A DNA stretch of 64,000 bases, from IMG/VR virus record IMGVR_UViG_3300027971_004105; one strand, given 5' to 3'. The notes beneath the pieces were generated by a model that had not been told where the DNA came from, searched no databases, and saw only the letters and a list, made by a program, of their open reading frames with translations. A program made the translations under genes and the position numbers. The DNA is from a virus (lineage: Duplodnaviria; Caudoviricetes). Below, one piece after another: positions 32,462 to 60,301 of this stretch (positions within the stretch are counted from its first letter, which is position 1; each line of letters begins with the position of its first letter).

Positions 32462-33610
32462 TTATTTTTGAATTGTTTTGGATTGTTTAATTTTACAGTC
32501 AGCCCAACTGCGATTGGTCCATTGAGAAGGTTTGTAATCTATATTTTTTGATTGAATACCATAACATGCTGGCACAGTATCATACAGTATCATTTTTTTA
32601 TTCACAGCAGCATCACGCAACATAATTTGATGTAAAAAATTAGTGACTGGTTTGCCTGGCACGAAATCACACCAAGGTCCACACTTCAATTGTTCCAAGT
32701 CAATGGTTTTAACATCACTCCATTGTATAATTCTATGAGTTATGCCATTGATATTCACCATGTAATGATAAAGATTATCATCAGCAGGTTGTTTTTCCCA
32801 AGTCCACCCTTTGCGATCACAAATTTGTTTGATCAATTTGACATGATCACTGAGATAAAATCTAGGTTCATCAGGAGATCTACCTATGTCTGATCCGGCT
32901 CTTATTCTGTATTGCCAACTCTTATGTCCTAAAGATTGTATTTCTTCCAGAACATGTTCCATATGATCCAAACTTTCCAATGTATATCCCACATAGTACA
33001 CAAAAATTCCTTCAGCAATACAATTGTCTATGCCTTGCAGTTGTTTTTGATGCACAGTTGCTCCTTGATAGGAATGATGATTCAAACCAATCATCACCAT
33101 GGTGGCTCCAGCAGCAGCGATTTCTTTCACCCATGCTCTGTCAGACAACTTTACTCCATTGGTCAATATGCACACGTCTTCAGGTCTGTTTAATCTTTTC
33201 AATAATGCTTTGATTTGTCTAATTAATTCTGGCAAGTCTTTGCGCACAGTGGGTTCAGCACCAGCCAATATCACAGCACCAGATTCTGCATGAAATCTAT
33301 GTTCAATCTGATCCAATATTTGTTCAATGGGTCTATCAGCTTGTTTATTGTCAGGTTTATGATAACAGTGCGGACAATTTAAATTACATCGGTCAGTGAC
33401 TTCTACCATGATCCCATGAGGAATGGTGTATCCTGAAACATCATAGTGTAATTGCTTATAAAATTCTACGTCTCTTTCTATTCTAATGTTTTGTGTGCCA
33501 TGCTCAGCACAAGTCTTGGTTAGATACACTCCAGAATCTCTTGTTTCTCTCACTGCTTCACAGTGTCTATAACAGATATCACACAAGCTAGTAGTTTTTA
33601 TATCTTCCAT
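32462..33610 (-). CDS. radical SAM enzyme with N-terminal CxxC...CxxHG metal site (MJ0619/Tes-like architecture)
   Basis: TSLCDIC...VYLTKTCAEHG; CNLNCPHC; GAEPT; LTNG. Confidence 0.85.
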   Translation of the reverse strand: MEDIKTTSLCDICYRHCEAVRETRDSGVYLTKTCAEHGTQNIRIERDVEFYKQLHYDVSGYTIPHGIMVEVTDRCNLNCPHCYHKPDNKQADRPIEQILDQIEHRFHAESGAVILAGAEPTVRKDLPELIRQIKALLKRLNRPEDVCILTNGVKLSDRAWVKEIAAAGATMVMIGLNHHSYQGATVHQKQLQGIDNCIAEGIFVYYVGYTLESLDHMEHVLEEIQSLGHKSWQYRIRAGSDIGRSPDEPRFYLSDHVKLIKQICDRKGWTWEKQPADDNLYHYMVNINGITHRIIQWSDVKTIDLEQLKCGPWCDFVPGKPVTNFLHQIMLRDAAVNKKMILYDTVPACYGIQSKNIDYKPSQWTNRSWADCKIKQSKTIQK

Positions 33611-33612
33611 GA

Positions 33613-34302
33613 TTATTTGTACAGTGCTATGGCAGCATCTATAAAATCTTTAGGGTAATTGTTTCTAAAACTTTCCAAACACAATATCTGCAAGCTGGCA
33701 AAGTCTGTGGGAGTGTGCATGTCAATATTTAGTTCATGCATTTTGGGCAGTAAAACTGTTCTCCTGTCTTGGGATATGTGACTGAAATGATCCTGCACAG
33801 TGATAAGTGGTTCGCTTTTGTGATAACAAAAGAAATAGTTAACACTTTTTAATTTGCCTTCCACCACAAAATAACTGCTGGGGTGTAAACTGTATTTGTA
33901 TAATCCTAATGTTTTGTGTGCTTGCAGAATCTCCAACATCTGTTCACGCCAATTGGGCAGCACTGCATCCATGCCCACTGTGTGACTCTGTTCCCAAAAA
34001 TCCACGCCATCAACGCCAAAGATAATTTTTTTATTGTCATAGTCCAGTTCCAATATGTCAGGAATGTGTTCTGGAAAATTGTGATGCATCATCAGCAGCA
34101 TATCCACTTCTCTCTGCCATTTTTGTTCCATTAGGATGGGATCCATCACTTCGTTTTGATCTCTGTGATACTCTGTGTCGTTGTGAAACCATTGCACAAA
34201 TTCTGTTTTATTTTGATTGATAAGACTGGTGTACACAAGATTGTTCCTGCACAATCCTTTGCCTGGCACATTATTGTAATAGTATACGTAGTCAGTTACC
34301 AT
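33613..34302 (-). CDS. protein-kinase-like fold protein
   Basis: QREVDML, PDILELD, KYSLHPSSYF; paralogous to 42619-43254. Confidence 0.5.
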   Translation of the reverse strand: MVTDYVYYYNNVPGKGLCRNNLVYTSLINQNKTEFVQWFHNDTEYHRDQNEVMDPILMEQKWQREVDMLLMMHHNFPEHIPDILELDYDNKKIIFGVDGVDFWEQSHTVGMDAVLPNWREQMLEILQAHKTLGLYKYSLHPSSYFVVEGKLKSVNYFFCYHKSEPLITVQDHFSHISQDRRTVLLPKMHELNIDMHTPTDFASLQILCLESFRNNYPKDFIDAAIALYK

Positions 34303-34850
34303 CTAGGATATCTTTCCAATTGTTTGTAAAATTCTTGAACATTTAATTGCCACACAGTTTGATTTGTGCCTCTGTATTTTATTTGATTGATTTTTTTCAA
34401 ACATTTAGATTCTGCCAACATGGGTGCCCAAATATTATGCACTAGACGTTGAGTGCCTTCACTATTTTCATTGGTGGTCACATAAAGATTATTTTGTGAT
34501 CCAGCCCATTCAATACAAGTGGGAATAAAAAATTGTGGAGTGACGCTTTGATGCGTGAGTATGCCTGTTTTGGTTCTTAATCTTGAGATAGGCAATTGAT
34601 CTGTGAACACACAAGTTCTACACAATATTCTAAAACTATTTTCACCCATTTCAGGAAAAGAATGAGCGCCAGTAGACCCCACTATTTTATTGTTGTATTT
34701 AAGCAACCAAATTTTCCATTTTTTTTCTGTGGAGATGCTGTCCACCAACATTTTTTTATTACTGTTGTTTTTGAATCCTTTGGATTCTGCTTGAAGATAA
34801 AATTCTGTTAAATCAATCGATTCAGAATATGGTACCAATTTATAAGTCAT
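34296..34850 (-). CDS. GNAT-like acetyltransferase
   Basis: WLLKYNNKIVGSTGAH...FRILCRTCV strand pattern. Confidence 0.55.
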   Translation of the reverse strand: MTYKLVPYSESIDLTEFYLQAESKGFKNNSNKKMLVDSISTEKKWKIWLLKYNNKIVGSTGAHSFPEMGENSFRILCRTCVFTDQLPISRLRTKTGILTHQSVTPQFFIPTCIEWAGSQNNLYVTTNENSEGTQRLVHNIWAPMLAESKCLKKINQIKYRGTNQTVWQLNVQEFYKQLERYPRW

Positions 34851-34866
34851 AAATTATTTTGCTCTC

Positions 34867-34886
34867 AATATTTAACACTAAATATT
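34867..34886. promoter_or_regulatory. back-to-back divergent late promoters
   Basis: Perfect inverted repeat AATATTTA-ACAC-TAAATATT in the 39-bp gap between divergent genes. Confidence 0.7.
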
Positions 34887-34889
34887 TGG

Positions 34890-35696
34890 ATGATAAGAGG
34901 AATTGGTGGCCGACCATATATTGATTTAACTCCACATTTGGATATAGAAGGTTTTAGGAAATTACATCCTGAAATTTGCCGAGGATTTGCTTTGGCTAGA
35001 GAATATGCCAAAGAAGGCACATGGATGTCGCCAGGATTTAATCTACAAGACATGAGTTATCAATTGAATTGGAAACCAATTTATCAGGCTGTGAAAGAAT
35101 ATCTTGCACTGCCCATAGATCATCCTATTAGAAAAAACGGTGATGATTTGTATGCCAATATCAAAGATTACCGCACAAGAAATCAATTCACACGCTACCT
35201 CAAAGCAGTGTTGGGTGCCAAAGATCCATACATCTATTATTTTTTATGGAATGAAGGCGATTGGGATAATAGAAATTCTGAAAGACATCTCACAGAGGAA
35301 AGCAAACATTTTCCTGGATTGGTCACATGGGTTAAAAATCTTGTGGATCAAAACATTATCAGTCAAATAGGCAGAGTGATATTTTTTCACTGTGAACATG
35401 ATGGACAACCATTTGAACACAGAGATCTAGATGGCAAACTGGGTGATCAACAAGGATACAGTGATCATCGCAATGAGTTCATACACATACGTTATAACAC
35501 CAAAAGAGGATTTTATATTTGGGATCCTGAAACAAAAAACAAAACCTACATCAATGCCAATGCAGCTTTCTGGAACGATCAAGACTGGCATGGTGGAGAA
35601 ATTAATCGTGAACAAGAGTATGGATTGAGAATTGACTGTGTGTTCACCGATGCATTTAGAAAAAAATTAGGCATCGATCATTTAAAAAATTATTAA
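34890..35696 (+). CDS. cupin/2OG-Fe(II) dioxygenase-like protein
   Basis: EHRD (HxD) and distal DWHGG; paralog of 41321-42076. Confidence 0.6.
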   Translation: MIRGIGGRPYIDLTPHLDIEGFRKLHPEICRGFALAREYAKEGTWMSPGFNLQDMSYQLNWKPIYQAVKEYLALPIDHPIRKNGDDLYANIKDYRTRNQFTRYLKAVLGAKDPYIYYFLWNEGDWDNRNSERHLTEESKHFPGLVTWVKNLVDQNIISQIGRVIFFHCEHDGQPFEHRDLDGKLGDQQGYSDHRNEFIHIRYNTKRGFYIWDPETKNKTYINANAAFWNDQDWHGGEINREQEYGLRIDCVFTDAFRKKLGIDHLKNY

Positions 35697-35697
35697 T

Positions 35698-36321
35698 ATG
35701 AATAACTTTCATCGTTTTATAAATCTACCTTTTACCATAGATAGACCAAAAATTTTTGATACATTAAAAGTGCCTAACTGGTCAAGTGGTGGTATGACTT
35801 TTGAAATAGCTAAACAGCATGTTGATAAAAGAATCCTTGAATGGTTGGATAGTTTTAATATTTCCACATCTCAATTTTTTGAAGGAACTTACACTGCACC
35901 TAATAATGGATCTATTGGCATACACAGCGATACAGATACATTGTCGGACATGACCAAATTACTTTTTATTTGGGGGCCAGACAACAGTTTCACTAGATGG
36001 TGGGAGCCTAAAATTGATGCAGTTTCTTCAAAGATGCGACCAGATCAAGGAGGCCCGCATGCTGAAATTTTCAATCCTGACACGTATGTTTATGAATTTG
36101 ATGATGCGGACAGAGCACTGTGTTATGAAGAAAAAGATTGTAATTTATTGTATGAAAAAGTTTTATCTAAACCAAGCATAATTAACGCAGGCAGATTGCA
36201 TAGTACATTTAATAATGGCAGTGAAGATCGATGGGGTCTTACTCTTACATTAATGAAAAATAATAAAAGATTACAATTTTTTGAAGCATTAGAAATTTTT
36301 AAAGACATAATACATGAATAA
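35698..36321 (+). CDS. cupin/2OG-Fe(II) dioxygenase-like protein
   Basis: IHSD and RLHS; tandem paralog of the next gene. Confidence 0.55.
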   Translation: MNNFHRFINLPFTIDRPKIFDTLKVPNWSSGGMTFEIAKQHVDKRILEWLDSFNISTSQFFEGTYTAPNNGSIGIHSDTDTLSDMTKLLFIWGPDNSFTRWWEPKIDAVSSKMRPDQGGPHAEIFNPDTYVYEFDDADRALCYEEKDCNLLYEKVLSKPSIINAGRLHSTFNNGSEDRWGLTLTLMKNNKRLQFFEALEIFKDIIHE

Positions 36322-36931
36322 AACTATGTCTGATCAAAATTATTATCACAGATACTTAAAATTACCATTTGAATATTTAAAACCAAGATGTTTTAATAAA
36401 AGTTATGATCATCCTAATATGATATATGTTTTGCCAGAATCAATTGACCAAAGTGTGATCAAATGGATCGAGTCCTTCGATTTAAAAGTATCCAATCTTA
36501 TTGAAGGATTTTATACTCCCACAAATGGTGGAAAGATACCTCTGCACAATGATACCTCTACCATAAGCAATGCTGTAAAAATTAATTTTACCTGGGGACC
36601 AGACAACAGTGTGACCAGATGGTGGCATGTGAAACAACCTGAATATTTAAAACCGGTCAAACCAGACAATAGTCATATATTAATTGCGGGTGTGGTGCCC
36701 GATATAGTGGTCACAGATGCTTACTCAGCACGTGAAGAAGATTGTGATTTGGTGCATGAGCAAGTGATCAATAGACCCAGTTTGATGAACATAGGACAAC
36801 TGCACAGCACATTCAATCCCAACATGACTGAAGATCGTTGGACACTGTGTTTTACTCTGTTAAAATTAGATAACACACATCTACAATTTGAAGAAGCTGT
36901 GCAAATATTCAAAGATTATATTCATGAATAG
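36314..36931 (+). CDS. cupin/2OG-Fe(II) dioxygenase-like protein
   Basis: LHND, QLHS and distal DRW. Confidence 0.55.
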   Translation: MNKTMSDQNYYHRYLKLPFEYLKPRCFNKSYDHPNMIYVLPESIDQSVIKWIESFDLKVSNLIEGFYTPTNGGKIPLHNDTSTISNAVKINFTWGPDNSVTRWWHVKQPEYLKPVKPDNSHILIAGVVPDIVVTDAYSAREEDCDLVHEQVINRPSLMNIGQLHSTFNPNMTEDRWTLCFTLLKLDNTHLQFEEAVQIFKDYIHE

Positions 36932-37460
36932 AACAGTGCGTATTACCTGCCCCAAAGAATTTAATAAAAAATACATGTCTCGTCAACATGACAATTATAT
37001 CAACAAGTTGAATGTGTATCACAACGCACAAAAAATATTTGCCAACATTGATGATGCAGAGGAGAATCTTCCTATAATATTAGAAAAATCCATTGTGTTC
37101 GATAATATCAACGTTTTTGAATTCAATTATGATATTAAATTTCACTCAGTGGAAGAGCAGGCCAAAATTATATGGAGTCTTAAACCAATAAATTATCTGT
37201 ATCAAAGTCATGTGCAGTTGATCAGACTCAACAGTGTGCAAGGCAGTGAACATGTGTCAGATGACTATCGTATCACAGTGAAGTGTAATCAATACACTCA
37301 CTCAGTGGGCAAGGAATATCATCAAGGACAACATCAAAACATAAATTTTAAGGATCTCATAGATGCCAACGGATACTGTTGTTTCAGCGTGGAAACCAAA
37401 AAAGTTTTTGATAACACTTCAGCCATCACATACGATCAATTACAATTTGAAATACTATAA
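36924..37460 (+). CDS. hypothetical protein
   Basis: ATG 36924 overlaps the previous gene end. Confidence 0.6.
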   Translation: MNRTVRITCPKEFNKKYMSRQHDNYINKLNVYHNAQKIFANIDDAEENLPIILEKSIVFDNINVFEFNYDIKFHSVEEQAKIIWSLKPINYLYQSHVQLIRLNSVQGSEHVSDDYRITVKCNQYTHSVGKEYHQGQHQNINFKDLIDANGYCCFSVETKKVFDNTSAITYDQLQFEIL

Positions 37461-37468
37461 TTATTGCT

Positions 37469-38584
37469 ATGACTCTCAAAGGACTTATACCTGGCAGACA
37501 GCAGCCCACACATCCAGCAGACAAACATTGGCAATTTGGTACTGTTATGAATGGCGTTAAAAAGGTTGATCCTTTGTTGCATTATAGTTGCTTTACTTTG
37601 GGATTCGATAGAACAGATATCATTCAATATGTGTGTGATGCTATGAAAAATATCAAACCAGAAATAGCAGAATCTATTGTGCATGCTGAAGATTTAAAAT
37701 TAAACCATGCAAGTTATGAACTCAGCAATAAATTGTTTAAGATGAGTGGCGGATATAGAAGCTTCTTCGCATTGTCAGGCAGTGATGCCAACGAAGGAGC
37801 AATAAAGTTATCTTCTGCCTATCATCATGTGAAGAAAAACAATAACAAAAAACAAGTGATAAGTTTTGAGGGCAGTTATCACGGCAGCACTTTCCTTAAC
37901 AATAATCTTGGAGATCTACTGATGATCAATCCCATGTACAACATGGATAGGTATCATGGTGCAACAAGACTTGCCAGAGATTTTGAAATAGATCAAGTGG
38001 ATTGGACCAAAGTGATGAGTGTGATAGTAGAACCATGTTCATACGGTGGGGACATGACTCCAAACTCAAATGAGTTTTGGCAAAAATTAAAACATGTTCA
38101 ACAAACATTTGATGTGTTGATCATTATGGATGATATTTTTATAGGGGGAGGCAAAACAGGTAATTATTTTGGGTGGAAACACTTGCCCATACAACCTGAT
38201 ATCTGCACCATGGGCAAAGCCATCACAGGTGGATATTTTCCTTTGAGCATTACCATGTACAATGAAAAAATACATCAAACACTGCCCACAAACTTTGATT
38301 GGGATCATGGATACACCTATAATTTTTCTCTGTCAGGCATCAACAGTGCTTTAAAATATATGGACATACTGGAAAAAGAACAGGTATTGAACAACCATCA
38401 AACAATTCAAAACACTGCTGTTAAAACTATTCAAAGCACAGGTTTTGAAATACTGAATCGTTTTGGTTGCCTCTATATGATACGCAAAGGCAATTATAAA
38501 AATTTATATATTGTGCCTTTGAATGCTACTGAAGAATATTTTACTGTGCTTAAACAAAATTTAGAATCATATGAAAATAATTGA
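37469..38584 (+). CDS. class III PLP-dependent aminotransferase
   Basis: LSGSDANE, GSYHG, IVEP, DDIFIGGGKTG, MGKAITGGYFPL (PLP Lys), HGYTY. Confidence 0.9.
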   Translation: MTLKGLIPGRQQPTHPADKHWQFGTVMNGVKKVDPLLHYSCFTLGFDRTDIIQYVCDAMKNIKPEIAESIVHAEDLKLNHASYELSNKLFKMSGGYRSFFALSGSDANEGAIKLSSAYHHVKKNNNKKQVISFEGSYHGSTFLNNNLGDLLMINPMYNMDRYHGATRLARDFEIDQVDWTKVMSVIVEPCSYGGDMTPNSNEFWQKLKHVQQTFDVLIIMDDIFIGGGKTGNYFGWKHLPIQPDICTMGKAITGGYFPLSITMYNEKIHQTLPTNFDWDHGYTYNFSLSGINSALKYMDILEKEQVLNNHQTIQNTAVKTIQSTGFEILNRFGCLYMIRKGNYKNLYIVPLNATEEYFTVLKQNLESYENN

Positions 38585-39125
38585 TAATTTTTTTGACTCT
38601 GCAACGCTATCAGAACTAAAAAAAGCCATTCAAAACGAAATAGCTAACGAAATCAGTGCTATTAAAAAATCCGACCTGAGCACAGAAAAAGATCATGTAG
38701 GATTAGAAAATAGCAATTATTATTTTTTAAATGGTCCTGCTAAAATTATTGTATTAAAAAATTTAGTGGCAAATAAGTTGTTGTCTGCTGAAGTGATGGA
38801 TGATAACGACAGTATGCTACGCTATCATGTCAATAGAGCTCCCTACAATGCTAGATGGCATTTGGATGGATTGTATGCTGAAAAAGATGAATTGGATTAC
38901 ATAGGCATAACAATTTTCTTAAATGATGTTTGGCAAACAAATGACGGAGGATTATTTGTTTACAAAGAAAATAAAAATGATACACAGGGCAAGTTTGTTG
39001 AACCCATAGGTAATAGAGTTATAATTAATTCCAAAGATCTTGATCACGCAGTTACAGCAATAACCAACCAAGAAGTGATTCGATATTCTTTACAGATGTT
39101 TATTAATCACAAATACTTAATATGA
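38571..39125 (+). CDS. 2OG-Fe(II) oxygenase (prolyl-hydroxylase-like)
   Basis: WHLD, FLNDVW..NDGG, DHAV, RYSLQ. Confidence 0.85.
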   Translation: MKIIDNFFDSATLSELKKAIQNEIANEISAIKKSDLSTEKDHVGLENSNYYFLNGPAKIIVLKNLVANKLLSAEVMDDNDSMLRYHVNRAPYNARWHLDGLYAEKDELDYIGITIFLNDVWQTNDGGLFVYKENKNDTQGKFVEPIGNRVIINSKDLDHAVTAITNQEVIRYSLQMFINHKYLI

Positions 39126-40195
39126 TACACACAGAATTTGATCCATTACAAGAAGTAATTGTGGGAGATTGTTATGCTCCTGGAGATATGGATCATTTTT
39201 TACCCAAAGAAAGCATATCAAGTTTCAACAGAATACTGGAAGAAACCAAACAAGACCTTAACAATCTTGCAGATTTTATAAAAAACTCTAACATCAAAGT
39301 GCATAGACCAGAAGTACTAAAATACACAAAATCTATAGAGATGCCTAATTTTAAAGTGAATTTTCCCATGTGCCCCATGGTACCTAGAGATCAATATCTG
39401 ATTTTGGATAGACAAATTATACAAACTTACACCAGCTACACAGATAGATATTTTGATTCGTTGAGTTATGTGAAAATTTTTAATGAATTATTCAAAGAAG
39501 GATACAATTGGATTTCACAGCCTCTGCCCAAACTAATCAACACTCAGATAGATGAAAATTGGTACATATCTGACTCTATCTATCAAGAAAAATTATCAGA
39601 TCAATTGCTATGGCACACAGCTGCCATATTCAAAGCAGGAGATTCTTTGCTGTATAACAGTAGAGGTCCTGGTTCTAGCTTTGGTTTGGAATGGTTCAAA
39701 CGTAATTGTAAGGATTATACACTGATTGAAAACACTGGTGATACTGTGTTTAAAAACTACGGACATATTGATCATGGATTTTTATTAATAGACGATGACA
39801 CAGTAATACATGCTGGCATAGAATGGGTGCCTTTGGCATTAAGAAATAAAAAATTAATAGATGTTAAAAACTACGTTGGCAAAGTTGTGATAGACAACTA
39901 TATCAAAGACTACACTGCCACAGATGGCAGATATTCCAATGCTTGGTTGGAGCAATATCTGGCTAATTGGCGAGGATACACACAAGAAGTTTGTTTTGAT
40001 TTAAACGTATTAATTTTAGATTCAAAAAACATATTGTTTGGCAAACATTTACCTGAACTATTTCAATATTTAAAGACTTTCAACATCAATTGTCATGTGG
40101 TGCCACAACGTCACGAAGTATATTGGGAAGGTGGAACTCATTGCTGCACACTAGATGTTAAAAGAAAAGGTTCAAAAAGAAAGATAATAAATTAA
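39122..40195 (+). CDS. amidinotransferase (glycine/inosamine-phosphate amidinotransferase family)
   Basis: TEFDPLQEVIVG, PRD, GHID, GGTHCCTLDVKR (catalytic Cys). Confidence 0.9.
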   Translation: MIHTEFDPLQEVIVGDCYAPGDMDHFLPKESISSFNRILEETKQDLNNLADFIKNSNIKVHRPEVLKYTKSIEMPNFKVNFPMCPMVPRDQYLILDRQIIQTYTSYTDRYFDSLSYVKIFNELFKEGYNWISQPLPKLINTQIDENWYISDSIYQEKLSDQLLWHTAAIFKAGDSLLYNSRGPGSSFGLEWFKRNCKDYTLIENTGDTVFKNYGHIDHGFLLIDDDTVIHAGIEWVPLALRNKKLIDVKNYVGKVVIDNYIKDYTATDGRYSNAWLEQYLANWRGYTQEVCFDLNVLILDSKNILFGKHLPELFQYLKTFNINCHVVPQRHEVYWEGGTHCCTLDVKRKGSKRKIIN

Positions 40196-40746
40196 ATTTT
40201 TCTTACATCAATAGTGCTGACGTACAAAGGCTCATTCAATACAGTATTAAAAATACGAATGATATCTTGAGTATCACAGAAGGGTTCACTCTGTCTAACT
40301 CCGGTTTTTTCACCATAATTTAAAATTCGTATCAGCACACTTTGAGGTTGAGCACCAAATGGTGTTTTAACACTTAAAAACCTATGCACATTTTCCAAAT
40401 GAGTTTTTTGTTTAATATAATTTAAATCAGCGCCCACTTGTTTTAAAATATCTTCTGATAACTCAGTACCCAATGTACCAAAAGTTACTATTTTGCCTGT
40501 TTTATTTGTTTCACTCCATTTTTTATGAACCATCATCAACAGTTGAATCTGTGCATCACCCACGTGTGCTAGATTGACAAAATGGTCATAACTCGCACTT
40601 TGATCAACCACTCGTTGAATATCTTCCAATTTGTTCAAATTGTATCCAGTGTTTCTAGATATGCCCACAACTTCATGATGATGTTTGAGATGTTCAAACA
40701 ACACAGATCCTATGGGAGAAGTATGTCCGGTCATTAATATTTTCAT
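40192..40746 (-). CDS. short-chain dehydrogenase/reductase-like Rossmann protein
   Basis: ILMTGHTSPIG, FVNLAH, YIKQK (YxxxK). Confidence 0.7.
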   Translation of the reverse strand: MKILMTGHTSPIGSVLFEHLKHHHEVVGISRNTGYNLNKLEDIQRVVDQSASYDHFVNLAHVGDAQIQLLMMVHKKWSETNKTGKIVTFGTLGTELSEDILKQVGADLNYIKQKTHLENVHRFLSVKTPFGAQPQSVLIRILNYGEKTGVRQSEPFCDTQDIIRIFNTVLNEPLYVSTIDVRKI

Positions 40747-42076: not shown

Positions 42077-42077
42077 A

Positions 42078-43918: not shown

Positions 43919-43922
43919 AGCT

Positions 43923-43968
43923 GTACTTATCGTGAAAAATTATGTGGGCAGTTAATTACGATAAATAC
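43923..43968. promoter_or_regulatory. divergent late promoter pair
   Basis: GTACTTATCGT / ACGATAAATAC inverted repeat (10 of 11); TAAGTA on minus, TAAATA on plus. Confidence 0.65.
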
Positions 43969-43980
43969 TCTGTCCATACT

Positions 43981-49735: not shown

Positions 49736-50996
49736 AATCAGCAAACTCCGGATTTATTTTTTCAAAAGGTCCTTGATTTCTTGTGATGTCTAATCGGCGA
49801 TTAAAATCCACACAATCCATCCAGTATTGATTAAGATCTTTGGCTTTTAAAAAATTAATGTTGTCCTGTATTTGTTGTAGAGTAATTTTTTCCAATATTG
49901 GATGCTGTTGGACCAATGCATAATCTTTAATTCGAGGTTTCATTGCTTCCAGTTTGTCTATCACTTGATTTTTTAATTTTGCTGGCAACACTTGAGCACT
50001 CAATGCTCGGGGATAGTTTACTCTGTGACTGTAAAACACAATGCCCAAATCATTTAAAAAGTAATCAATCACACGGTCTATTTGCATGATATTGTTGGCT
50101 TGCACTGTGAATGCTCCCACTATTCTACTCACTGTGGGTATTTGTTTTATTATTTTTATGTTGTTGACCACATCCATGAACTTGCCATTGCCTCGGATAT
50201 ATTCATAAGTGTCAAAGATTCCATCAATACTCACATTCACTGCCACACTTTTAAATTTGGGCCAGTATTCCTGTATAGTCCTACCACCTTTGATGCCCAA
50301 CACTGTGCCATTGGTGGCATATTTGATCTCAATGTTGGATCCATTCTCACTCAATAGGTCCAATATTTTATAATGTGTGGGATCCATTAGAGGTTCGCCA
50401 CCAGCAAATTCCACACGTTTAAAATGAGGAATAAGTTTTTTTAAATTGTCCCAAAAATGTGGTTTATCTTCAAACAGATCCACATGCGGAGCCTGTGTCA
50501 AACCCAGATCTTCCACTGCTTTGACCAAGTAATTGTTTTCTTTCTTGTAATGATCCACAATACTGTTCCAGTCTTTCCATTGTGTGCTGTCCAATGGATT
50601 ACACATACGACATTTCAAGTTGCACAAGTTATTAATTTTGATTTCCATAGTGGGCAATTCAAAAGGCATGGTATAATCTTCTTTTAAACTGTCCAAAGCC
50701 GTGGGATATAGATTGATTCTAGATTCAGGAATATTATCACTGATGTGTCTTTGTCTCAAACTCTGCACTCCTTGATCTTCTAGATCAAAACAAGGCGCAC
50801 ACACATCAGGTCGCTCATCATTCAACACCTGACGTCGCACTTCTTTCATCTTTTCATTGTTCCATGCCTGTTCCATGGTTTCATTTTGTATATTACTGAT
50901 GGGTAAACTTCTGCAACACACCTTTATAGCACCATCTTCTCTGGTGGCCAATCCTGTGAATGGATGCATACAAAATGTACAACTTTTATTTTTCAT
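49728..50996 (-). CDS. radical SAM enzyme with N-terminal SPASM/twitch domain
   Basis: CMHPF...GAIKVCC...CAPC; CNLKCRMC; FAGGEPL. Confidence 0.9.
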   Translation of the reverse strand: MKNKSCTFCMHPFTGLATREDGAIKVCCRSLPISNIQNETMEQAWNNEKMKEVRRQVLNDERPDVCAPCFDLEDQGVQSLRQRHISDNIPESRINLYPTALDSLKEDYTMPFELPTMEIKINNLCNLKCRMCNPLDSTQWKDWNSIVDHYKKENNYLVKAVEDLGLTQAPHVDLFEDKPHFWDNLKKLIPHFKRVEFAGGEPLMDPTHYKILDLLSENGSNIEIKYATNGTVLGIKGGRTIQEYWPKFKSVAVNVSIDGIFDTYEYIRGNGKFMDVVNNIKIIKQIPTVSRIVGAFTVQANNIMQIDRVIDYFLNDLGIVFYSHRVNYPRALSAQVLPAKLKNQVIDKLEAMKPRIKDYALVQQHPILEKITLQQIQDNINFLKAKDLNQYWMDCVDFNRRLDITRNQGPFEKINPEFADYV

Positions 50997-51600
50997 TTTT
51001 CTTTCCTACAATCATAAATCTTTTGTATTTTTCTGTTTGTAATTCGCTGGGCTCCACAATAGGATACAGTTTACTATTGCTCACAAACTGATTCAAATCT
51101 TTCACAGGGTTCACATGTTCAGGAATCACAAAATCATTGCTTTGGCACACAATAATTTTGTCCTCAGGTATTAATTTCAACCATTCATTGTATTGTTCTG
51201 GCGTTAAATGTTCACACACTGTGTTAATAATCATGTCATAACGACTGTAATCTTTATAAGTGAGCATGTCTTGAGTAATAGCATGGAATTTGCCAGACAT
51301 TTCATACTGTTTGTTCATGGTGTTGGCTGTGTTTTCACACTTGCTGTCTATATCCATGCTGGTTATTTGGTTCACATACAGATCACTGTTGAACAAAAGT
51401 GTGGCCATCACTCCATACCACCCACCACAAATCAAAATATCCATGCTGTGTGCTCTGGGTAATTTTTTTAATTGTTCAATCAACCATACTTTGCTGTTGA
51501 TTTGACCTTTCCAGAAACTTTCCAATGTGCGATATCTGTCATCAGATTGTCTGATAGCATCCATCCAAAATAAAACGTCTTGTATATTAATTTTCAACAA
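50986..51600 (-). CDS. class I SAM-dependent methyltransferase-like protein
   Basis: ILICGGWYG, SMDID, INTVCEH. Confidence 0.7.
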   Translation of the reverse strand: MLKINIQDVLFWMDAIRQSDDRYRTLESFWKGQINSKVWLIEQLKKLPRAHSMDILICGGWYGVMATLLFNSDLYVNQITSMDIDSKCENTANTMNKQYEMSGKFHAITQDMLTYKDYSRYDMIINTVCEHLTPEQYNEWLKLIPEDKIIVCQSNDFVIPEHVNPVKDLNQFVSNSKLYPIVEPSELQTEKYKRFMIVGKKNEK

Positions 51601-52576
51601 ATTGTGCTCCTAGTTTATCAAATGAACCACACTGCTTGGTGCATTCTTTCAATCCCACTGTGCTCCATTGTGTTTCTATTTTTGAAAAAAATCCATTATC
51701 AAATATTTCTTTCAATGTTTCGCGATGTAAGTTGGGAAATTTAGAAATTTTTTCCATATAATCCACTCTAGATTCTTGCATGGGTGGTATCCATTCCATA
51801 TCCAACCAACAACAAGGCGACACATTACCACAAGCACTCACATACAACTGTTTGTATTTTTGTGCTTTACAAGCAATGTGTGGTTTGACTTCTTTTTGTG
51901 CGGCTTCAGACAACGGAATCATATCCAAACTGGTTTGAGTGGGTTTGATTCTGTGTGTGGGTCTACCCATGTCATCAATCACTTGTAAATAATCCTGTTT
52001 GAATCTAGAAGTGTGTTTGATTGAGAAATCCACAAAGCCCATGTCTTTGGACATTGTTCTACACTGTTCAATTTGATGTTCATTGTGAGCAAACACCAAC
52101 ATGTGCCATTTGGCCACTCCACCTGTTGAGATAAATGCTTGAGCATTTTCAATTATTTTATTGAAATCTGTACTGATTCTATAAAGATGATGGGTATCTG
52201 CCAAACCATCAATACCAAATGTCACTTTTACTTTCAATTGAGCCAATCTTTTCCACCATTCGGTATCTCTAGCACTGCCGTTGGTGTGCATGGCCAATCT
52301 AATGTTGGGATTTAGTTCACGCAAGTATTGATATATTTCCAATGTGTCTTTGGATATGATGGGATCTCCCAAATTACCACACATGAATAAACTTTCCAAT
52401 TGTTTTATGAAATCTGGTTCAAACCATTGTTTGAATACGCCCAAAGTTATTTCGTCCAATTTAATAAATGGATTTATTGGTCCTCCACTGATTCTTCTAG
52501 GACACATGGGGCACTTGGCTTGACACTTGCTGGTGATTTCCAAATGAATATCTCTTATATCTTGATATCTATACAT
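51587..52576 (-). CDS. radical SAM enzyme with C-terminal twitch domain
   Basis: CQAKCPMC, GNLGDP, HTNG, GNVSPCC. Confidence 0.9.
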   Translation of the reverse strand: MYRYQDIRDIHLEITSKCQAKCPMCPRRISGGPINPFIKLDEITLGVFKQWFEPDFIKQLESLFMCGNLGDPIISKDTLEIYQYLRELNPNIRLAMHTNGSARDTEWWKRLAQLKVKVTFGIDGLADTHHLYRISTDFNKIIENAQAFISTGGVAKWHMLVFAHNEHQIEQCRTMSKDMGFVDFSIKHTSRFKQDYLQVIDDMGRPTHRIKPTQTSLDMIPLSEAAQKEVKPHIACKAQKYKQLYVSACGNVSPCCWLDMEWIPPMQESRVDYMEKISKFPNLHRETLKEIFDNGFFSKIETQWSTVGLKECTKQCGSFDKLGAQFVEN

Positions 52577-53570
52577 GTTTGGCCTTGGGTATTTTTGAAT
52601 CTGCTGAACTCACACAAGTGGGAGTCACACAAACTCTTGGTTTATCAAACAATTTAAATCCTTGTTCTATATTGCCCAGTGGTTCATCATGACAACTGTA
52701 ACTTCTTTTGACTTCTCCGTTTGGTTCTCTAATGATACAACTTTGATATCCAGCATTACAGTGCCATCCTTTGAATTTATTGAACCCAAAAGCATTGAAT
52801 CGTTCTGCTTGATCCATATAATACTTATTGCCTTGAACATCTTGCATCTCAATTTGAAACAAGTCTTTGTAATTTTCACCTTCTTGAATGCGTTGAGGGA
52901 AGCCTGTTTGTAAAGTATTCAGTTGATCTCGAGTATAACCTTCAATAATAAAACTTGCTGTGGGATCACTCTGTGGTTTCAGTGTGACATTGATACCTCT
53001 GGAGTGGAGTCTTGCACATCTATCATAGTATTCTGTGAATCTTTCGGGCACCATCACTTGATTGATTGTGACAAACACATTGTGCTTCATCAACAGCAAT
53101 ATTTTATCTCCAAATTTTTGTTCATCAGCGAATTCAGCATGAAAGCTGGCAGTGATACTTCTGCGGTTCAATGTTTTTGTGGCTTCCAACCATCTTTCCC
53201 ACCATTTTTCCGAAGGACTTAGGTTGGTGGTCATGTGAATACTCTGATATTCTGGAGCAGTATCAGCACTGTAATGCTGTATCAATTGTAAAAAATCTTT
53301 GTAGGCAGTGGGTTCTCCACCTGAAAAACTGAAATGATAGTCAGTGAATCCATTCAGTCTAGCCTGACGTTTGATTTCATCCACCACTTGTGTGTAAACT
53401 GACAGTGGTCTGTGATCTTTCTGTTTGCTTTTGGCATAAGGCCAGCAGTAAGAACAATCATAGTTGCAAAAACGAGCCAAGATCCAACTCACAGAAAATA
53501 ATTTGCTGTCCAGCATGGTACGTTGACCAAAGTTTATAATTTTATCAAATGGAATGTTGGAATCTATCAT
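52569..53570 (-). CDS. radical SAM enzyme with C-terminal Cys cluster
   Basis: CNYDCSYC, FSGGEPT, TTN; ATGA coupling supports start 53570. Confidence 0.9.
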   Translation of the reverse strand: MIDSNIPFDKIINFGQRTMLDSKLFSVSWILARFCNYDCSYCWPYAKSKQKDHRPLSVYTQVVDEIKRQARLNGFTDYHFSFSGGEPTAYKDFLQLIQHYSADTAPEYQSIHMTTNLSPSEKWWERWLEATKTLNRRSITASFHAEFADEQKFGDKILLLMKHNVFVTINQVMVPERFTEYYDRCARLHSRGINVTLKPQSDPTASFIIEGYTRDQLNTLQTGFPQRIQEGENYKDLFQIEMQDVQGNKYYMDQAERFNAFGFNKFKGWHCNAGYQSCIIREPNGEVKRSYSCHDEPLGNIEQGFKLFDKPRVCVTPTCVSSADSKIPKAKHV

Positions 53571-54274
53571 AATATTTCTTTCTCCATGTGTGGAAATTGT
53601 CCCACAAACACCAATCGCAACCATTCAAAGTTGTTGATCAATCTCAAAGTGTCTGAATTATCTCGGTTGTCTGAGCCATACACTCTGCCTGCCAGTGCTC
53701 CAGCAACGGCATACTCTCCGTATGGTTTATCATCTCCCACTGTGCACCAAATCAATAATCTTTTTTCAGTTTCCTTGTCTTCTTGACGATCGATTACTTT
53801 GCTGCTGAGCTTGACACACTCTCTAAAAGCACTTTTCCATGTGTTGAATGGATCTGTATTGAACACAGTGGTGTTGGATACTTCATGCATGGCTCTAAAT
53901 CTATTAGATATACTAGTGGTCATGTCTATTCTGTTGGGATCCATGTTCATAGTGAGTCTTTTGGGCAATAATTTCACTCCGCCATAACCATATTCCAGTT
54001 CATTGATAGGATTTCGACTTCTCCACACATGCACAGCATCCATATCTTTATCAGGCACTTCATAATCAAACATAAAGTTGTGTTCAATCACTGCATCACC
54101 ATCCACCACCCAAAACATTTTAGTCAAACTCTGTGTGGCAGCTTTGATATGTGCCTGTTGAATGCCTTTTACTCCGTGAACTCTTTGCGCCAATGGAAAT
54201 CTTTGTTTCAACAGAGCATAATTTTGATCTGCATTGGGTTCATTGTAACTGATAAAAAATATATCGTGCATCAT
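53567..54274 (-). CDS. GT-A-like glycosyltransferase
   Basis: FFISYNEPNAD, AHIKAA, VVDGD (DxD), YGYGGVKL. Confidence 0.6.
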   Translation of the reverse strand: MMHDIFFISYNEPNADQNYALLKQRFPLAQRVHGVKGIQQAHIKAATQSLTKMFWVVDGDAVIEHNFMFDYEVPDKDMDAVHVWRSRNPINELEYGYGGVKLLPKRLTMNMDPNRIDMTTSISNRFRAMHEVSNTTVFNTDPFNTWKSAFRECVKLSSKVIDRQEDKETEKRLLIWCTVGDDKPYGEYAVAGALAGRVYGSDNRDNSDTLRLINNFEWLRLVFVGQFPHMEKEIL

Positions 54275-55187
54275 ACAGTCTTTCTTATGGTTCTGGGTGA
54301 ATTGATATACACCTTTTTGAAAAATTCACTGCTTTCTGCATCGTATGGTTCCGTAGGAAACTCCATTTGGAATCGTTCTTTAATAGTTTTACCCAAAGAG
54401 ATACATTTTTGTTTGGCATCTTGTGCATTCATACTGTTATTGTTGCTGGTGCTGATCCATAATTGTTCTAAAACTTTAAAATCTCTCACTTGTTTGAAAT
54501 CCCATTGGGTGCAAAGTGTTCGATAACAACCTTCTCTGGCTCCTGCAATGGCCCAAATGCCATGTTCCACATCCTGACCCACAGTCATCCAGATTAATAA
54601 TCTGTGATAATTCTGCCACCATAGTTGATCCAACGACTGTATTTTAAAATTTTTATACAAACTCATCTTAACACCTTCTCTAAATCCAGCTCTCCATGCT
54701 TGTTTGGGTGTGCTGTTGATGTAACTGGTGGAATAGTTTTCATTGAATTGAAACAGTTTATCAAAATAACAAAATTCTATCTCATTATTATCCTTACCAG
54801 AAAAATTTTCATGTGTTTTCATCTCATTCACAAAAGTTTTGGTCCATAATTTTAAACTGCCATTGCCATACTTTAATCCATTAATCCATTCACGTTGGTA
54901 TGTCCACACCAGCTGAAAATATATGTGTGATCCATGCCCATGCTGTTTAGATCCAGTTGAATATTGAGAAATTTAGGATCTAGTTGTGTGTCTCCGTCCA
55001 CAGTTAAAAAATATTCTGTGTCAGACACAGCAGCACAGGCTTTGTGTGCAGCATCTGATCCTTCCACGCCGTGAACTCTTTTGGCCCAAGGTATTTTTCT
55101 TTTTAAATCTGCATAATTTTTATCAGCATTGGGCTCATCAAAGCTCAAAAATACCACATCGCAATCTTTGATAGCAATCTTATGCAT
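54271..55187 (-). pseudogene. GT-A-like glycosyltransferase paralog split by an 8-bp duplication frameshift
   Basis: Removing one AATGGATT copy gives a 909-bp, 302-aa frame ...NVNGLKYGNGSLKLW... collinear with 53567-54274. Confidence 0.8.
54875..54890. repeat. 8-bp tandem duplication AATCCATT x2
   Basis: Directly visible; sits exactly at the frame switch. Confidence 0.9.
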
Positions 55188-55758
55188 AAATCCTTTCAAT
55201 AGAATAATCAAAAGTTTTTCTACAGTAAATGTCCATGTTTGTCTCGGCATTCACATCTATCTGCACACTGTCTTGAGTGAGCAGTTCATAAAGATTCAAA
55301 TCTAATATTTTAATCAGTTGTGTGGCATCGTTGGATTTGCAACAATAAAACTTGTGGTTACGATGATTTTCTTTGGAAACTATGGTTTCTAAAGTTTTTT
55401 TAAATGTTTTGTCTGCTGTGAATTCAACTTTGTTTTGATTCAAATGTAATTTTATTTGTATGCCACTGTGATTTTTAATTTTATTGGGAATTTTATAAAC
55501 GTTGTGATTGATTATTTCAGTTTTTTTAGAATGAATCACATTTTCCACTGAGTTTAATACTCCATCTTTTTGAATTTGATATTGACCATTGAGATATATC
55601 ACTTTGTACTTGTGTATAGACTCCATACCTATAATAAATTTTTCACCCAAAGCAGTGTCTATGGCCAGACTGTTGTTGTTTTGGCTGCCTGAACAACCTA
55701 AGATTTTTCCTGATTCTGGGTCAAATGTTACGTACATATGGTTATTGGGTTGATTCAT
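55180..55758 (-). CDS. hypothetical protein
   Basis: ATG 55758 overlaps the end of the upstream gene. Confidence 0.6.
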   Translation of the reverse strand: MNQPNNHMYVTFDPESGKILGCSGSQNNNSLAIDTALGEKFIIGMESIHKYKVIYLNGQYQIQKDGVLNSVENVIHSKKTEIINHNVYKIPNKIKNHSGIQIKLHLNQNKVEFTADKTFKKTLETIVSKENHRNHKFYCCKSNDATQLIKILDLNLYELLTQDSVQIDVNAETNMDIYCRKTFDYSIERIYA

Positions 55759-56590
55759 AATATTTTTTTTTAATGATTGCAAACAGTTCATCAGTTAAGA
55801 ATTCATTTTCCACATAATGCAACACTCCTCGTTGACGAAAATTATCAATTTTTATATGACCTTCCATGTCATGATACACATTTACTTTTTTCATCCAGTG
55901 ATCCGGCACTGTTTTCCAGTCTTGTAGATGAGGTTTCATATGAGTGAACGTGACGTAAGGTGTTCGGCTGGTAATTTTTTCAGTGATGCCTAATAATTTA
56001 CTGGCCAGTGCCACACTCACATCCATACTGCACCATTTTTGAGTGTGTTTGGGAGTGAATCTGTTATAGAATACTGCGTAATTTCTTACTATATCTCGCA
56101 AAAGTTCTACAAACTGATCATTTTCTTTGCATCTTTGATAGTAATGCACACCACAATAAAGGTTGGGCAGACTATTGCTTGTGAAAGTTTTGCGATAGTG
56201 ATCACTGTGACTGAATTCATCTCTATAATTTTTAACTGCACTGGTGAAATACATTTTATAATTTTTTAAAAACTTCCACCAATGACTGATATCACTCAAC
56301 ACCAACATATCTGCATCCAATATTATTGAATGTTTGAAGGGAGTGGCTGTGTAAATTTTATATCTGTTCTGTATTTTCCAATCTTGGTCCACTGCTTCAT
56401 CCATGCCAGGAATATCCACCACATGATCAAACACTGAGGACACAGTTTTTGTGACGTTAACATTTGTGATCAAACACACTTTGCTGTGAGGCATGTGCGT
56501 TTTGATACTCATGGCCAATGCCTGTGCCTGTCTCACATAGTCCACTTGTTCATTTTGCTGTGCAAACACACAGAACCCTTGATCTATCAT
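55742..56590 (-). CDS. GT-A glycosyltransferase-like protein (GT8-like)
   Basis: TPFKHSIILDADML (DxD), LYCGVHY, FTHMK. Confidence 0.7.
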   Translation of the reverse strand: MIDQGFCVFAQQNEQVDYVRQAQALAMSIKTHMPHSKVCLITNVNVTKTVSSVFDHVVDIPGMDEAVDQDWKIQNRYKIYTATPFKHSIILDADMLVLSDISHWWKFLKNYKMYFTSAVKNYRDEFSHSDHYRKTFTSNSLPNLYCGVHYYQRCKENDQFVELLRDIVRNYAVFYNRFTPKHTQKWCSMDVSVALASKLLGITEKITSRTPYVTFTHMKPHLQDWKTVPDHWMKKVNVYHDMEGHIKIDNFRQRGVLHYVENEFLTDELFAIIKKKYYESTQ

Positions 56591-57438
56591 TTGGAAAACT
56601 CCTCATCAATAATGTGGTCCAAACTGAATTTGTTCATCACGTGCAGATTAATATGTTTGGCCAAAGTTTTTGTGTATCCTTGTGTGTTGTACAATGAAAC
56701 AGTCCAGCAGTTCTGATCAAAATTGTCTGCTTTGTCTCTGTCAGTGATATAATACAACGAATCTGGCAAGCGTTGTGGCCATGCACCTTTGCAATATCCA
56801 TTCAACATGTGTATGGCCATGCTGAAAGCAAAATCATTTCTAAAATTTGGTTCATGTATCTGCCATGTGAATCTGTAAAAGTCCCAATGATTTTTAATAT
56901 GTGCAATCAGATCAAACAACTGTTTGACTCTGGGAGTTTTTTTAAAATAAAACACTGTGGCCCAATACATCTCCATGCCGGTTTCACTGATGTATTTGAT
57001 TTTCCATTCAGGTTGATTAAAATAATTGATGTAAATGGACTTTTGATGTATTAAAAAATCTTCTTTGCTGTGAAAACATCGGAGTAAATTATCATTGCCC
57101 ACTATGTAATCAGTGTCCATCACAATAGTTTCGTCATATGGAGTGAGTTCATAAGCAGTGGATCTTAAATGATTTTTCCATACATCTTTGATCTTGTGTT
57201 CCATGCCATTGTAAAAATCTCGAGTCTGAAGAGTTTGATGCTCACTGATATCTATCACTTGATCAAACACCGTGGATTGCTTTTTATATTTGTTATTTAG
57301 ATGTGCTTGATTGGAAGTGATCAGGGTCACTGGCAGACGCAGATGTTTTTTGATCTGCACAGCAGCAAAAATAGCCTGCTTCACATAATCAACTGTTTCA
57401 TTATTGTGAGCAAACATCACAATGCCTTGAGATTTCAT
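56587..57438 (-). CDS. GT-A glycosyltransferase-like protein, paralog of 55742-56590
   Basis: TPYDETIVMDTDYI, YWATVFYF, LHVMNK. Confidence 0.7.
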   Translation of the reverse strand: MKSQGIVMFAHNNETVDYVKQAIFAAVQIKKHLRLPVTLITSNQAHLNNKYKKQSTVFDQVIDISEHQTLQTRDFYNGMEHKIKDVWKNHLRSTAYELTPYDETIVMDTDYIVGNDNLLRCFHSKEDFLIHQKSIYINYFNQPEWKIKYISETGMEMYWATVFYFKKTPRVKQLFDLIAHIKNHWDFYRFTWQIHEPNFRNDFAFSMAIHMLNGYCKGAWPQRLPDSLYYITDRDKADNFDQNCWTVSLYNTQGYTKTLAKHINLHVMNKFSLDHIIDEEFSK

Positions 57439-57441
57439 GGC

Positions 57442-57774
57442 TTAAATGTTTCCTTTGTTTTTTATCAGTGTTTGATATTCTGTGTGATATTGATTGAGAT
57501 TGGTTTGATATGTGTGCCAAGCATTGTCATTGAATTCTGTTAGATCACTTATCAACACTGGTGTTTGATAATCATCCAACAACACCACATCTTTGGTTCT
57601 GTGTAGGTCTATGTATGACTTGCACAAACTCAACAAATCACCTTGGATTGTGAACTGATGTCCTTGATAAAACAAAATATTGCTGTCAACAAATTTGTCT
57701 TTTAATAACTGCAGCTGATTATTAAAATTTTCCATTTGATTGGCTGTGCTGATTCTATCTTCCATGTTTAGCAT
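57442..57774 (-). CDS. hypothetical protein
   Basis: AGGAG SD; first gene of the minus-strand operon. Confidence 0.65.
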   Translation of the reverse strand: MLNMEDRISTANQMENFNNQLQLLKDKFVDSNILFYQGHQFTIQGDLLSLCKSYIDLHRTKDVVLLDDYQTPVLISDLTEFNDNAWHTYQTNLNQYHTEYQTLIKNKGNI

Positions 57775-57797: not shown

Positions 57798-57826
57798 ATT
57801 ATATAAGATTTTCAGCCAAAAGTCAA
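57798..57826 (-). promoter_or_regulatory. sigma70-type promoter of the GT/radical SAM operon
   Basis: Minus strand TTGACT-17 bp-TATAAT. Confidence 0.78.
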
Positions 57827-60299: not shown

Positions 60300-60301
60300 T
60301 C

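Follow-up and report, generated by a model that had tools for sequence, protein, structure and literature searches.

Cytoplasmic glycosylation of virion proteins by viral systems is represented by A64R of chlorovirus PBCV-1, the fibril glycans of Megavirinae and the mycobacteriophages. Sugar-tailoring genes are also carried by viruses in such systems (PMC9614988, PMC10117803). Among aquatic phages, the closest described locus is the host-recognition cluster of pelagimyophages and cyanomyophages, where fibre genes stand beside glycosyltransferases (GTs), GT8 being prominent, and where cassettes of radical S-adenosylmethionine (SAM) genes differ between similar phages (Zaragoza-Solas et al. 2020, PMC7029224). 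A marine T4-like genome, TARA_ERS488813_N000010, has an exceptional number of radical SAM genes, 12, and has been discussed just for its consumption of Fe-S clusters (Nishimura et al. 2017, PMC5332604). Passing mentions of this kind are all that was found in the literature. In this paper, a locus of this kind is described from IMG/VR virus record IMGVR_UViG_3300027971_004105 (Duplodnaviria; Caudoviricetes), of which one stretch of 64,000 nucleotides, called the window below, was analysed. A dense biosynthetic island occupies positions 32462-57774 of the window. Sequence comparison shows it to be a variant of a modular accessory cassette that is widespread in the fibre module of uncultured aquatic jumbo phages. 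Its products may synthesise an unusual glycan in the cytoplasm, edit it by radical SAM chemistry and transfer it, most likely onto virion or fibre proteins; this reading is the one preferred here, tentatively and short of being called probable.

As with the host-recognition clusters of Zaragoza-Solas et al. (2020), the island belongs to a large and hypervariable region mixing tail-fibre genes, GTs and radical SAM cassettes. Those clusters lie in T4-like phages of roughly 150-200 kb, and neither a function nor a conserved core was named for them, whereas the carriers here have genomes estimated at about 360 kb. Moreover, a core of five genes can be recognised here which also exists in Bdellovibrionota, and the freshwater pelagimyophages of PMC7029224 are without radical SAM genes. 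The descriptive class of host-recognition cluster of aquatic myophages fits the island in its fibre flanks, GTs, radical SAM cassettes and swapping of modules between near-identical backbones. TARA_ERS488813_N000010 probably carries the same kind of cassette; its account describes no cassette structure, GT link or fibre link (PMC5332604). The glycosylation systems of chloroviruses, Megavirinae and mycobacteriophages likewise have soluble virus-encoded GT-A enzymes beside structural genes. Those systems, however, are not known to use radical SAM enzymes, which make up 8 of the 32 genes of the putative system here.

The island contains 33 open reading frames (ORFs) whose ends overlap or nearly abut (Table 1). 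The number of genes is 32, because the ORFs at 54271-54909 and 54873-55250 are a single GT gene split by an 8-bp tandem duplication. A sequence-only reading made earlier from this DNA had counted about 29 contiguous genes; the dense contiguous block stands and the count is corrected. Five transcription units can be distinguished, g03-g01 (-), g04-g10 (+), g16-g11 (-), g17-g19 (+) and g33-g20 (-), the last comprising 14 genes with five of the radical SAM genes and all of the GTs. The divergent junctions at 34851-34889 and 43919-43941 measure just 39 and 23 nt, the sole larger intergenic gap is the 101 nt ahead of g33, and the smallest ORF encodes 110 aa. Most of the gene content that had been read from the sequence is confirmed between these coordinates, and it is far beyond chance. 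Fibre genes stand on both sides of the block, as had been read from the sequence: an Mtd_N gene on the left and, on the right, g34-g37, whose common N-termini indicate paralogy and of which g37 bears a Collar domain. Across the 33 island products no hydrophobic segment of transmembrane strength was found (maximum KD19 1.44). Neither the initiating phosphoglycosyl transferase, flippase or ABC exporter and polymerase that are hallmarks of O-antigen and capsule loci, nor any nucleic-acid-related domain, was found among the Pfam families of the island. The DNA polymerase gene lies about 20 kb away. Just upstream of the fibre module, at 27332-29728, is a conserved pair encoding a MoxR-type AAA ATPase followed by a DUF2201 metallopeptidase-like/VWA protein.

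Table 1. Genes and sites of the island and its flanks, with positions in the window and the supporting matches (E-values unless stated otherwise).
Feature	Position	Strand	Evidence
g38, left flanking fibre gene, Mtd_N domain	31307..32455	+	Pfam PF18454 1.3e-9
g01, radical SAM with N-terminal HMPTM-type zinc ribbon	32462..33610	-	PF04055 2.1e-19; PF23545 5e-12; CNLNCPHC
g02, protein-kinase-like fold	33613..34302	-	blastp to paralogue g15 5.9e-9; profile to TTK kinase 1e-5
g03, conserved in relatives	34296..34850	-	no family match
g04, probable Asp/Asn-beta-hydroxylase-type cupin	34890..35696	+	Atlas lead PF05118 0.96 (score); invariant H177-R-D179...H234
g05 + g06, paralogues, 40% identical	35698..36931	+	up to four copies in relatives
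g07	36888..37460	+	no family match
g08, class III (omega) aminotransferase	37469..38584	+	PF00202 5.4e-43
g09, 2-oxoglutarate (2OG)-Fe(II) oxygenase (P4H-like)	38571..39125	+	PF13640 1.5e-7; HLD motif
g10, amidinotransferase	39122..40195	+	PDB: HsvA 2.9e-22 (residues 2-354), SxtG 1.5e-19, StrB1 2.5e-19
g11, short Rossmann protein, like short-chain dehydrogenases/reductases (SDR) and epimerases	40192..40746	-	PF01370 9.5e-5; NF005754 3.9e-5
g12	40743..41324	-	faint HopBF1-kinase match, NF035942 0.0022
g13, paralogue of g04, probable cupin hydroxylase	41321..42076	-	blastp 2e-10; Cupin_2 0.032
g14, probable cupin-type oxygenase, HWD...H	42078..42626	-	hhalign to g16 family, E 8e-4, metal motifs aligned
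g15, protein-kinase-like fold	42619..43254	-	blastp to g02; profile to TTK 1e-5
g16, Fe/2OG beta-hydroxylase, Cpz10 type	43235..43918	-	profile to PDB 7v4f 5.3e-14; PMC9814697
g17, radical SAM	43942..45024	+	paralogue family g17/g21/g22/g26, nearest model STM4011
g18, PP-loop ATPase, QueC-like	45021..45842	+	phrog_1550 2e-5; invariant SGGADS; C-terminal CxxCxxC
g19, N-terminal-twitch radical SAM	45829..47247	+	NF033640 389.5 bits (cut-off 170)
g20	47213..47905	-	no family match; GDS motif only
g21 + g22, radical SAM paralogues	47863..49744	-	PF04055
g23, second N-terminal-twitch radical SAM	49728..50996	-	NF033640 323.3 bits (cut-off 170)
g24, class I SAM-dependent methyltransferase fold, core gene	50986..51600	-	AlphaFold2 model pLDDT 88.7; Foldseek PDB 1.4e-10, TM 0.64
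g25, radical SAM with C-terminal SPASM, core gene	51587..52576	-	PF04055; PF13186 24.3 bits
g26, radical SAM, core gene	52569..53624	-	PF04055; 49-56% identical in Bdellovibrionota
g27, soluble GT-A (GT2-like) glycosyltransferase, core gene	53567..54274	-	AlphaFold2 model pLDDT 89; D58xD60 invariant
g28 + g29, paralogue of g27 split by 8-bp tandem duplication	54271..55187	-	
g30	55180..55791	-	no family match
g31 + g32, GT8-like (glycogenin-type) GT-A glycosyltransferases	55742..57438	-	profile to glycogenin-1 1.5e-6; D92xD94 invariant; Atlas lead
g33, small protein, opens 14-gene unit	57442..57774	-	
Sigma-70-type promoter-like site TTGACT-17-TATAAT	57798..57826	-	in 101-nt gap before g33
g34-g37, right flanking fibre genes with N-termini in common (paralogy)	57876..63942	-	Collar domain in g37 (62530-63942), PF07484 3.6e-18

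Exactly eight island proteins pass the Pfam model PF04055, with 39-71 bits against a cut-off of 29.5, and each has one copy of CxxxCxxC, so the eight radical SAM enzymes read from the sequence are all present. According to similarity, they can be divided into four groups: g01; g17, g21, g22 and g26; g19 and g23; and g25. For g01 the nearest NCBIfam models are TrsS, Tes and MJ0619, whose scores are far under their cut-offs. Both g19 and g23 belong to NF033640 (N_Twi_rSAM), a computationally defined family, and carry their SPASM match ahead of the radical SAM core (residues 33-111 in g19; residues 9-69 in g23, 32.1 bits). To our knowledge, neither NF033640 nor the STM4011-like families have a characterised member, and no substrate has been given for any member. 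The most conserved gene of the cassette is g19, which matches about 9,100 clusters of 50% identity at E <=0.001. Its homologues of 35-37% identity, in the neighbourhoods that were read, lie on phage-like contigs in multi-radical-SAM cassettes. Fusions among its relatives, tandem radical SAM duplications and one TPR fusion, are uninformative. Outside the island, a ninth and weak radical-SAM-like ORF is present at 23238-24098 of the window (PF04055 6.5e-6, under the cut-off), seen through record G001, the nearest record, which covers positions 1-29783.

The four GT-A-like genes of the earlier reading are real, being two GT2-like genes (g27 and the split g28+g29) and two GT8-like genes (g31 and g32). 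No match was returned by a PDB profile search with the g27 family, and its identity came from folding, which gave assignments for g27 and g24 only. All of the top 50 PDB matches of the g27 model in Foldseek are GT-A fold nucleotide-diphospho-sugar enzymes, nearly all of them glycosyltransferases, with PBCV-1 A64R at rank 36. The split gene carries a duplication, ATGGATTA x2 at 54873-54890 (-), which yields two ORFs from one GT-A gene. An otherwise identical contig in DNA run X2 is without the extra 8 bp and has the intact allele, and a related lake contig (L008, 5818-6726) encodes an intact form of 302 aa. It can be seen that ON and OFF forms of this GT coexist in nature.

The distribution of the cassette among viruses is wide. 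Near-identical contigs were found in several freshwater lake metagenomes, and 17 DNA runs from 15 studies contain at least half of the stretch. Searched at the nucleotide level against isolated phages, the island gave no match, and a protein search with g19 against isolated phages returned just matches of 23-25% (Ralstonia phage RsoM2USA, Vibrio phages K566 and K567) and no close copy. The T4-type DNA polymerase of the window is at most 48% identical to those of jumbo phages of 350-490 kb, and the size of the carriers was estimated at about 360 kb because CheckV rates the 84-160 kb contigs of relatives as 23-44% complete. At least 260 IMG/VR contigs carry a relative of g19 with 80% identity or more, and its matches at E <=1e-10 amount to 2,765 proteins. 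The earlier reading had presented the island as a singular cluster; the cassette is instead widespread, common to marine jumbo phages and Bdellovibrionota.

Cassette composition was compared over 80 loci by a tblastn matrix. The conserved set consists of g14-g19 and g22-g27, frequently with g02-g04; the g27 family accompanies the radical SAM core in marine phages also. The operon of aminotransferase, hydroxylase and amidinotransferase, together with g20/g21 and g31/g32, was seen just in close freshwater relatives. Whole modules have been exchanged, gained or dropped in backbones that share about 90% identity with the window. Cassettes of marine relatives add UDP-glucose/GDP-mannose dehydrogenase, a full-length epimerase/dehydratase of nucleotide-diphospho-sugars, and extra PF05118 and TauD-family oxygenases. 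The link to fibre genes is kept, in agreement with the phage-borne island embedded in a fibre module that had been proposed: in all five larger relatives the sole Collar-domain fibre gene of the record is at most 13 kb away from the cassette, and in three of the five an Mtd_N fibre closes the other side. Smaller variations were also seen. Between the g18 and g19 homologues, four relatives (L016, at 9378-9998, L017, L023 and L029) have an extra gene of 210-223 aa; this is likelier than an intron or intein, which was considered for a length difference of about 386 nt in the g19 matches of some relatives. Some relatives also have a 2-kb insert between g23 and g24, encoding a 463-aa protein and a PF05118 hydroxylase. 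Two further g19 relatives, of 74% and 59% identity, come from contigs of 3.5 and 4.9 kb in metagenome-assembled genomes named 'Thermoplasmata archaeon' (L097, PUNK01000001.1) and Crocinitomicaceae (L098); these are much nearer to the phage than any Bdellovibrionota copy and are probably misbinned phage DNA.

In bacteria, which were scanned at one genome per species with a 6-sequence alignment as query, orthologues of g19 with 44-49% identity exist in dozens of Bdellovibrionota, some on complete chromosomes and one in the cultured Bdellovibrio sp. HCB2-146 (JBLEQP010000001.1, at about 1.88-1.90 Mb). Also shared with the phage are g26, g25, g24 and often g27, whose family is found in many of the loci at 31-45% identity. 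These shared genes therefore define a five-gene core of GT-A, radical SAM, radical SAM-SPASM, methyltransferase and N-twitch radical SAM. Of the five bacterial contexts that were examined, two, one of them also with a QueC-like gene, have radical SAM genes interleaved with four or five Pfam GT2 genes. Both of these GT2-rich versions have a GtrB-like GT2 with hydrophobic transmembrane-like segments and proteins with 4-8 such segments (L177, 12735-13829 and 15293-16873; L178, 1439-2884 and 14274-15323), whereas the phage island has neither. The fifth context, OZ241840.1, is a small version with three radical SAM genes among housekeeping genes. In HCB2-146, the cassette abuts a fibre-like Peptidase_S74 protein of 1959 aa, and an amidinotransferase recurs in some bacterial cassettes.

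The constant company of GTs, the sugar-nucleotide enzymes of relatives, the modular turnover and the ON/OFF GT allele together favour a glycan pathway. Given the all-soluble make-up of the island and its conserved place among the fibre genes, the acceptor in phages is most likely a virion protein in the cytoplasm. Module swapping and an 8-bp slippage allele are both commonly seen where surface-glycan loci undergo diversifying selection. From these features we infer the class of substrate, the chemistry and the acceptor. A putatively ancient core, formed by the soluble GT-A g27, the radical SAM enzymes g26, g25 (SPASM) and g19 (N-twitch) and the class I methyltransferase g24, is joined by lineage-specific modules that are swapped between phages. 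Such modules are the extra radical SAM enzymes, the Cpz10- and Asp/Asn-type Fe/2OG oxygenases, the QueC-like amidating enzyme, the small kinase-fold proteins, the operon of aminotransferase, 2OG-hydroxylase and amidinotransferase, and the GT8 transferases. Host nucleotide sugars or a nascent glycan would first be taken up by the enzymes in the infected cytoplasm. Several radical edits may be made next, such as oxidation, epimerisation, deoxygenation or C-C chemistry, and after them would come hydroxylation, methylation and amidation and, in this phage, amination and guanidinylation. The product would then be assembled on or attached to an acceptor made in the cytoplasm by the four GT-A-type transferases, the acceptor most likely being a virion protein such as the neighbouring fibres. 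The surface of the particle would be diversified as a result.

The timing of expression bears on the destination of the product. Late-type promoters had been read ahead of four of the five units. Exact CTAAATA is present 5 nt 5' of the g04 ATG, and also ahead of fibre genes g34 and g35; the variants ATAAGTA or TTAAATA stand ahead of g16 and g03. No late-type motif was found ahead of g17, and the largest unit follows a sigma-70-type site, so that the claim holds exactly for one unit and by variants for two. Over the whole window CTAAATA is not enriched (10 observed against 8.6 expected), just its positions at start codons being suggestive. The single TATAAATA of the window is at 31266, ahead of fibre gene g38. 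At divergent junctions of relatives (23-65 nt; L017, L048, L054, L059, L086 and others), GRTAARTA lies about 5 nt before both ATGs, which leaves no space for a Shine-Dalgarno sequence. Such an arrangement suggests compact promoters of a T4-late-like type that act in both directions and give near-leaderless mRNAs. The sigma-70-type site ahead of g33 is among the two best of its type in 20 kb, and TTGACA-17-TATAAT precedes the g27 homologue in four marine relatives (L056, L070, L071 and L073), which suggests early transcription of the radical SAM core by the host polymerase. With such a site on the largest unit and late-type motifs elsewhere, timing appears mixed, not uniformly late.

An early-looking promoter on the main unit, here and in marine relatives, would also suit remodelling of the host envelope. 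Lipopolysaccharide (LPS), O-antigen or another surface glycan would in that case be altered by way of a host lipid carrier and export, and superinfection or adsorption of progeny would be blocked. Remodelling of this kind has been proposed for GT8-rich host-recognition clusters, where radical SAM cassettes are noted (PMC7029224). In the island g31 and g32 are GT8-like, and the two bacterial versions with a GtrB-like GT2 and multi-segment proteins point the same way. However, the island encodes neither a membrane protein nor any flippase, polymerase, ligase or initiating phosphoglycosyl transferase, and conserved placement between fibre genes would not be required for such a role. Envelope remodelling is considered unlikely, though it deserves attention.

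Several of these points, with others, weigh against decoration of virion proteins by a glycan. GT8 enzymes classically act on LPS cores. The probably early, sigma-70-type promoter suits host remodelling or the build-up of precursors at least as well, and the bacterial versions, as judged from their gene content, suggest the envelope as destination. In bacteria the S74 fibre neighbour is not general, being found at 4 of about 70 loci and in neither of two further contexts. The window has no recognisable gene for a nucleotidyltransferase or for sugar activation of another kind. Sugar chemistry by the radical SAM enzymes is an analogy to BtrN, DesII and BlsE, because the families have no characterised member. 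In two metatranscriptome studies, short contigs with 95-99% identity to at least 12 island genes were found, which is compatible with transcription but also with carry-over DNA; the parts of the island without such contigs are uninformative on expression. Glycan decoration is still the best-fitting form of what had been proposed from the sequence, with real GTs and fibre linkage retained and uniformly late expression given up.

The remaining enzymes can be read in other ways. SPASM and twitch radical SAM enzymes and PF05118-type hydroxylases commonly act on peptides. The island has both kinds, the second at the level of a lead for g04 and g13, and it is linked to fibre genes; side chains of fibre or virion proteins may thus be modified directly, in the manner of proteusins and other ribosomally synthesised and post-translationally modified peptides (RiPPs), with glycosylation as one step of several. 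Protein N-terminal methyltransferases are among the best fold matches of g24, the profiles of g02 and g15 match protein kinases, and g31 and g32 resemble glycogenin, a protein-glycosylating GT8. These fold matches are generic, though, and the cassettes of relatives hold sugar-nucleotide enzymes. Furthermore, no precursor peptide gene is present, and there is no room for one because the gaps do not exceed 101 nt; in Pfam and NCBIfam no RiPP recognition element (RRE) or PqqD leader-binding domain was found on any island protein, the radical SAM enzymes included. The mycofactocin pathway, with MftC (radical SAM-SPASM), MftF (GT2) and MftM (methyltransferase), has a like trio of enzymes acting on one product. 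Unlike that pathway, the island is without an MftA-like peptide, RRE protein, MftD and MftE, and NCBIfam mycofactocin models score far under their cut-offs. Direct modification of side chains is judged quite unlikely.

Most of the other tailoring enzymes named in the earlier reading were found again. The class III aminotransferase (g08), the amidinotransferase (g10, which keeps the catalytic-Cys motif GGTHC at 337), the two kinase-like proteins (g02 and g15) and the QueC-like enzyme (g18) all have matches in Table 1, and the methyltransferase (g24) was assigned by its fold. A distant cassette (L095) holds an APH/choline-kinase-like homologue of g15. About seven cupin or 2OG-Fe(II)-like proteins had been listed; three are supported (g09, g16 and g14), and two to four more are suspected, among them g04 and g13; g05 and g06 are unassigned. 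A relation between the g04 and g16 families was sought by hhalign and none was obtained. The SDR claim is reduced to the N-terminal Rossmann match of g11. The GNAT assignment of g03 found no match in Pfam, PHROG, NCBIfam or a PDB profile search, and the SGNH assignment of g20 has no support from any library, just its GDS motif. With PHROG, Pfam and NCBIfam at permissive thresholds, no useful match was obtained for g03, g05-g07, g12, g20, g30 and g33, and PDB profile searches with the g04, g14, g24, g18 and g03 families gave none.

The aminotransferase, kinase-fold proteins, StrB1-like amidinotransferase, SDR-like protein and twitch radical SAM enzymes form a streptidine-like set, the amidinotransferase standing in one operon with the aminotransferase and near the others (cf. 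BtrN). This would be consistent with a free, diffusible guanidino small molecule resembling aminocyclitols, aminoglycosides or nucleoside antibiotics and directed against the host or competitors. The Cpz10-like hydroxylase recalls nucleoside antibiotics, as does a TauD-family enzyme in one relative, and the recurrence of the amidinotransferase in bacterial cassettes can be added. Unlike streptidine and aminoglycoside loci, the island has no inositol-phosphate synthase, 2-deoxy-scyllo-inosose synthase, exporter or resistance gene, and no cyclitol synthase was recognised in it. In addition, the StrB1-like operon is accessory and not core because it is confined to close freshwater relatives, and a free metabolite would leave the position in the fibre module unexplained. 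Such a product seems very unlikely.

The QueC-like PP-loop enzyme g18 is the single hallmark in the island of hypermodification of DNA bases, which the earlier reading had given as its alternative. Either thymidines or, with a radical SAM enzyme serving as QueE, 7-deazaguanines would be involved, and glycosylation might follow. Radical SAM, pyridoxal phosphate-dependent and kinase enzymes occur in thymidine hypermodification (PMC8989533), and an early-type promoter on the main unit would be suitable. No DpdA/TGT (PF01702) and no ThyA-type hydroxymethylase (PF00303) was found in the records of five relatives, which at 23-44% completeness is weak evidence. Within the island there is no FolE, QueD, 5-hydroxymethyldeoxyuridine (5-hmdU) kinase, aGPT-Pplase or DNA-binding domain. 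The island is in the fibre module and at a distance from the polymerase, and the same core exists in bacterial chromosomes, in two contexts among Pfam GT2 genes. From the island and the partial records of relatives, base hypermodification is regarded as highly improbable.

With glycan decoration as the preferred reading, a further proposal concerns the chemistry. It is possible, though doubtful, that the multi-radical-SAM core rebuilds a sugar or glycan, or the fibre protein itself, by a new biochemical route, so that a recognition-relevant decoration of fibres would be common to jumbo phages and Bdellovibrionota. Roughly a quarter of the island genes are radical SAM genes from families without a characterised member. 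The cassette is abundant, as indicated by the viral contigs and close g19 proteins counted above, and extends over freshwater and marine jumbo phages and predatory bacteria. Identification of its product would give a function to thousands of unannotated Fe-S enzymes, and the existence of the core in a cultured Bdellovibrio makes the question experimentally approachable. The same knowledge would tell whether it is their fibres or their hosts that large phages decorate chemically, and may explain part of the hypervariability of host-recognition regions.

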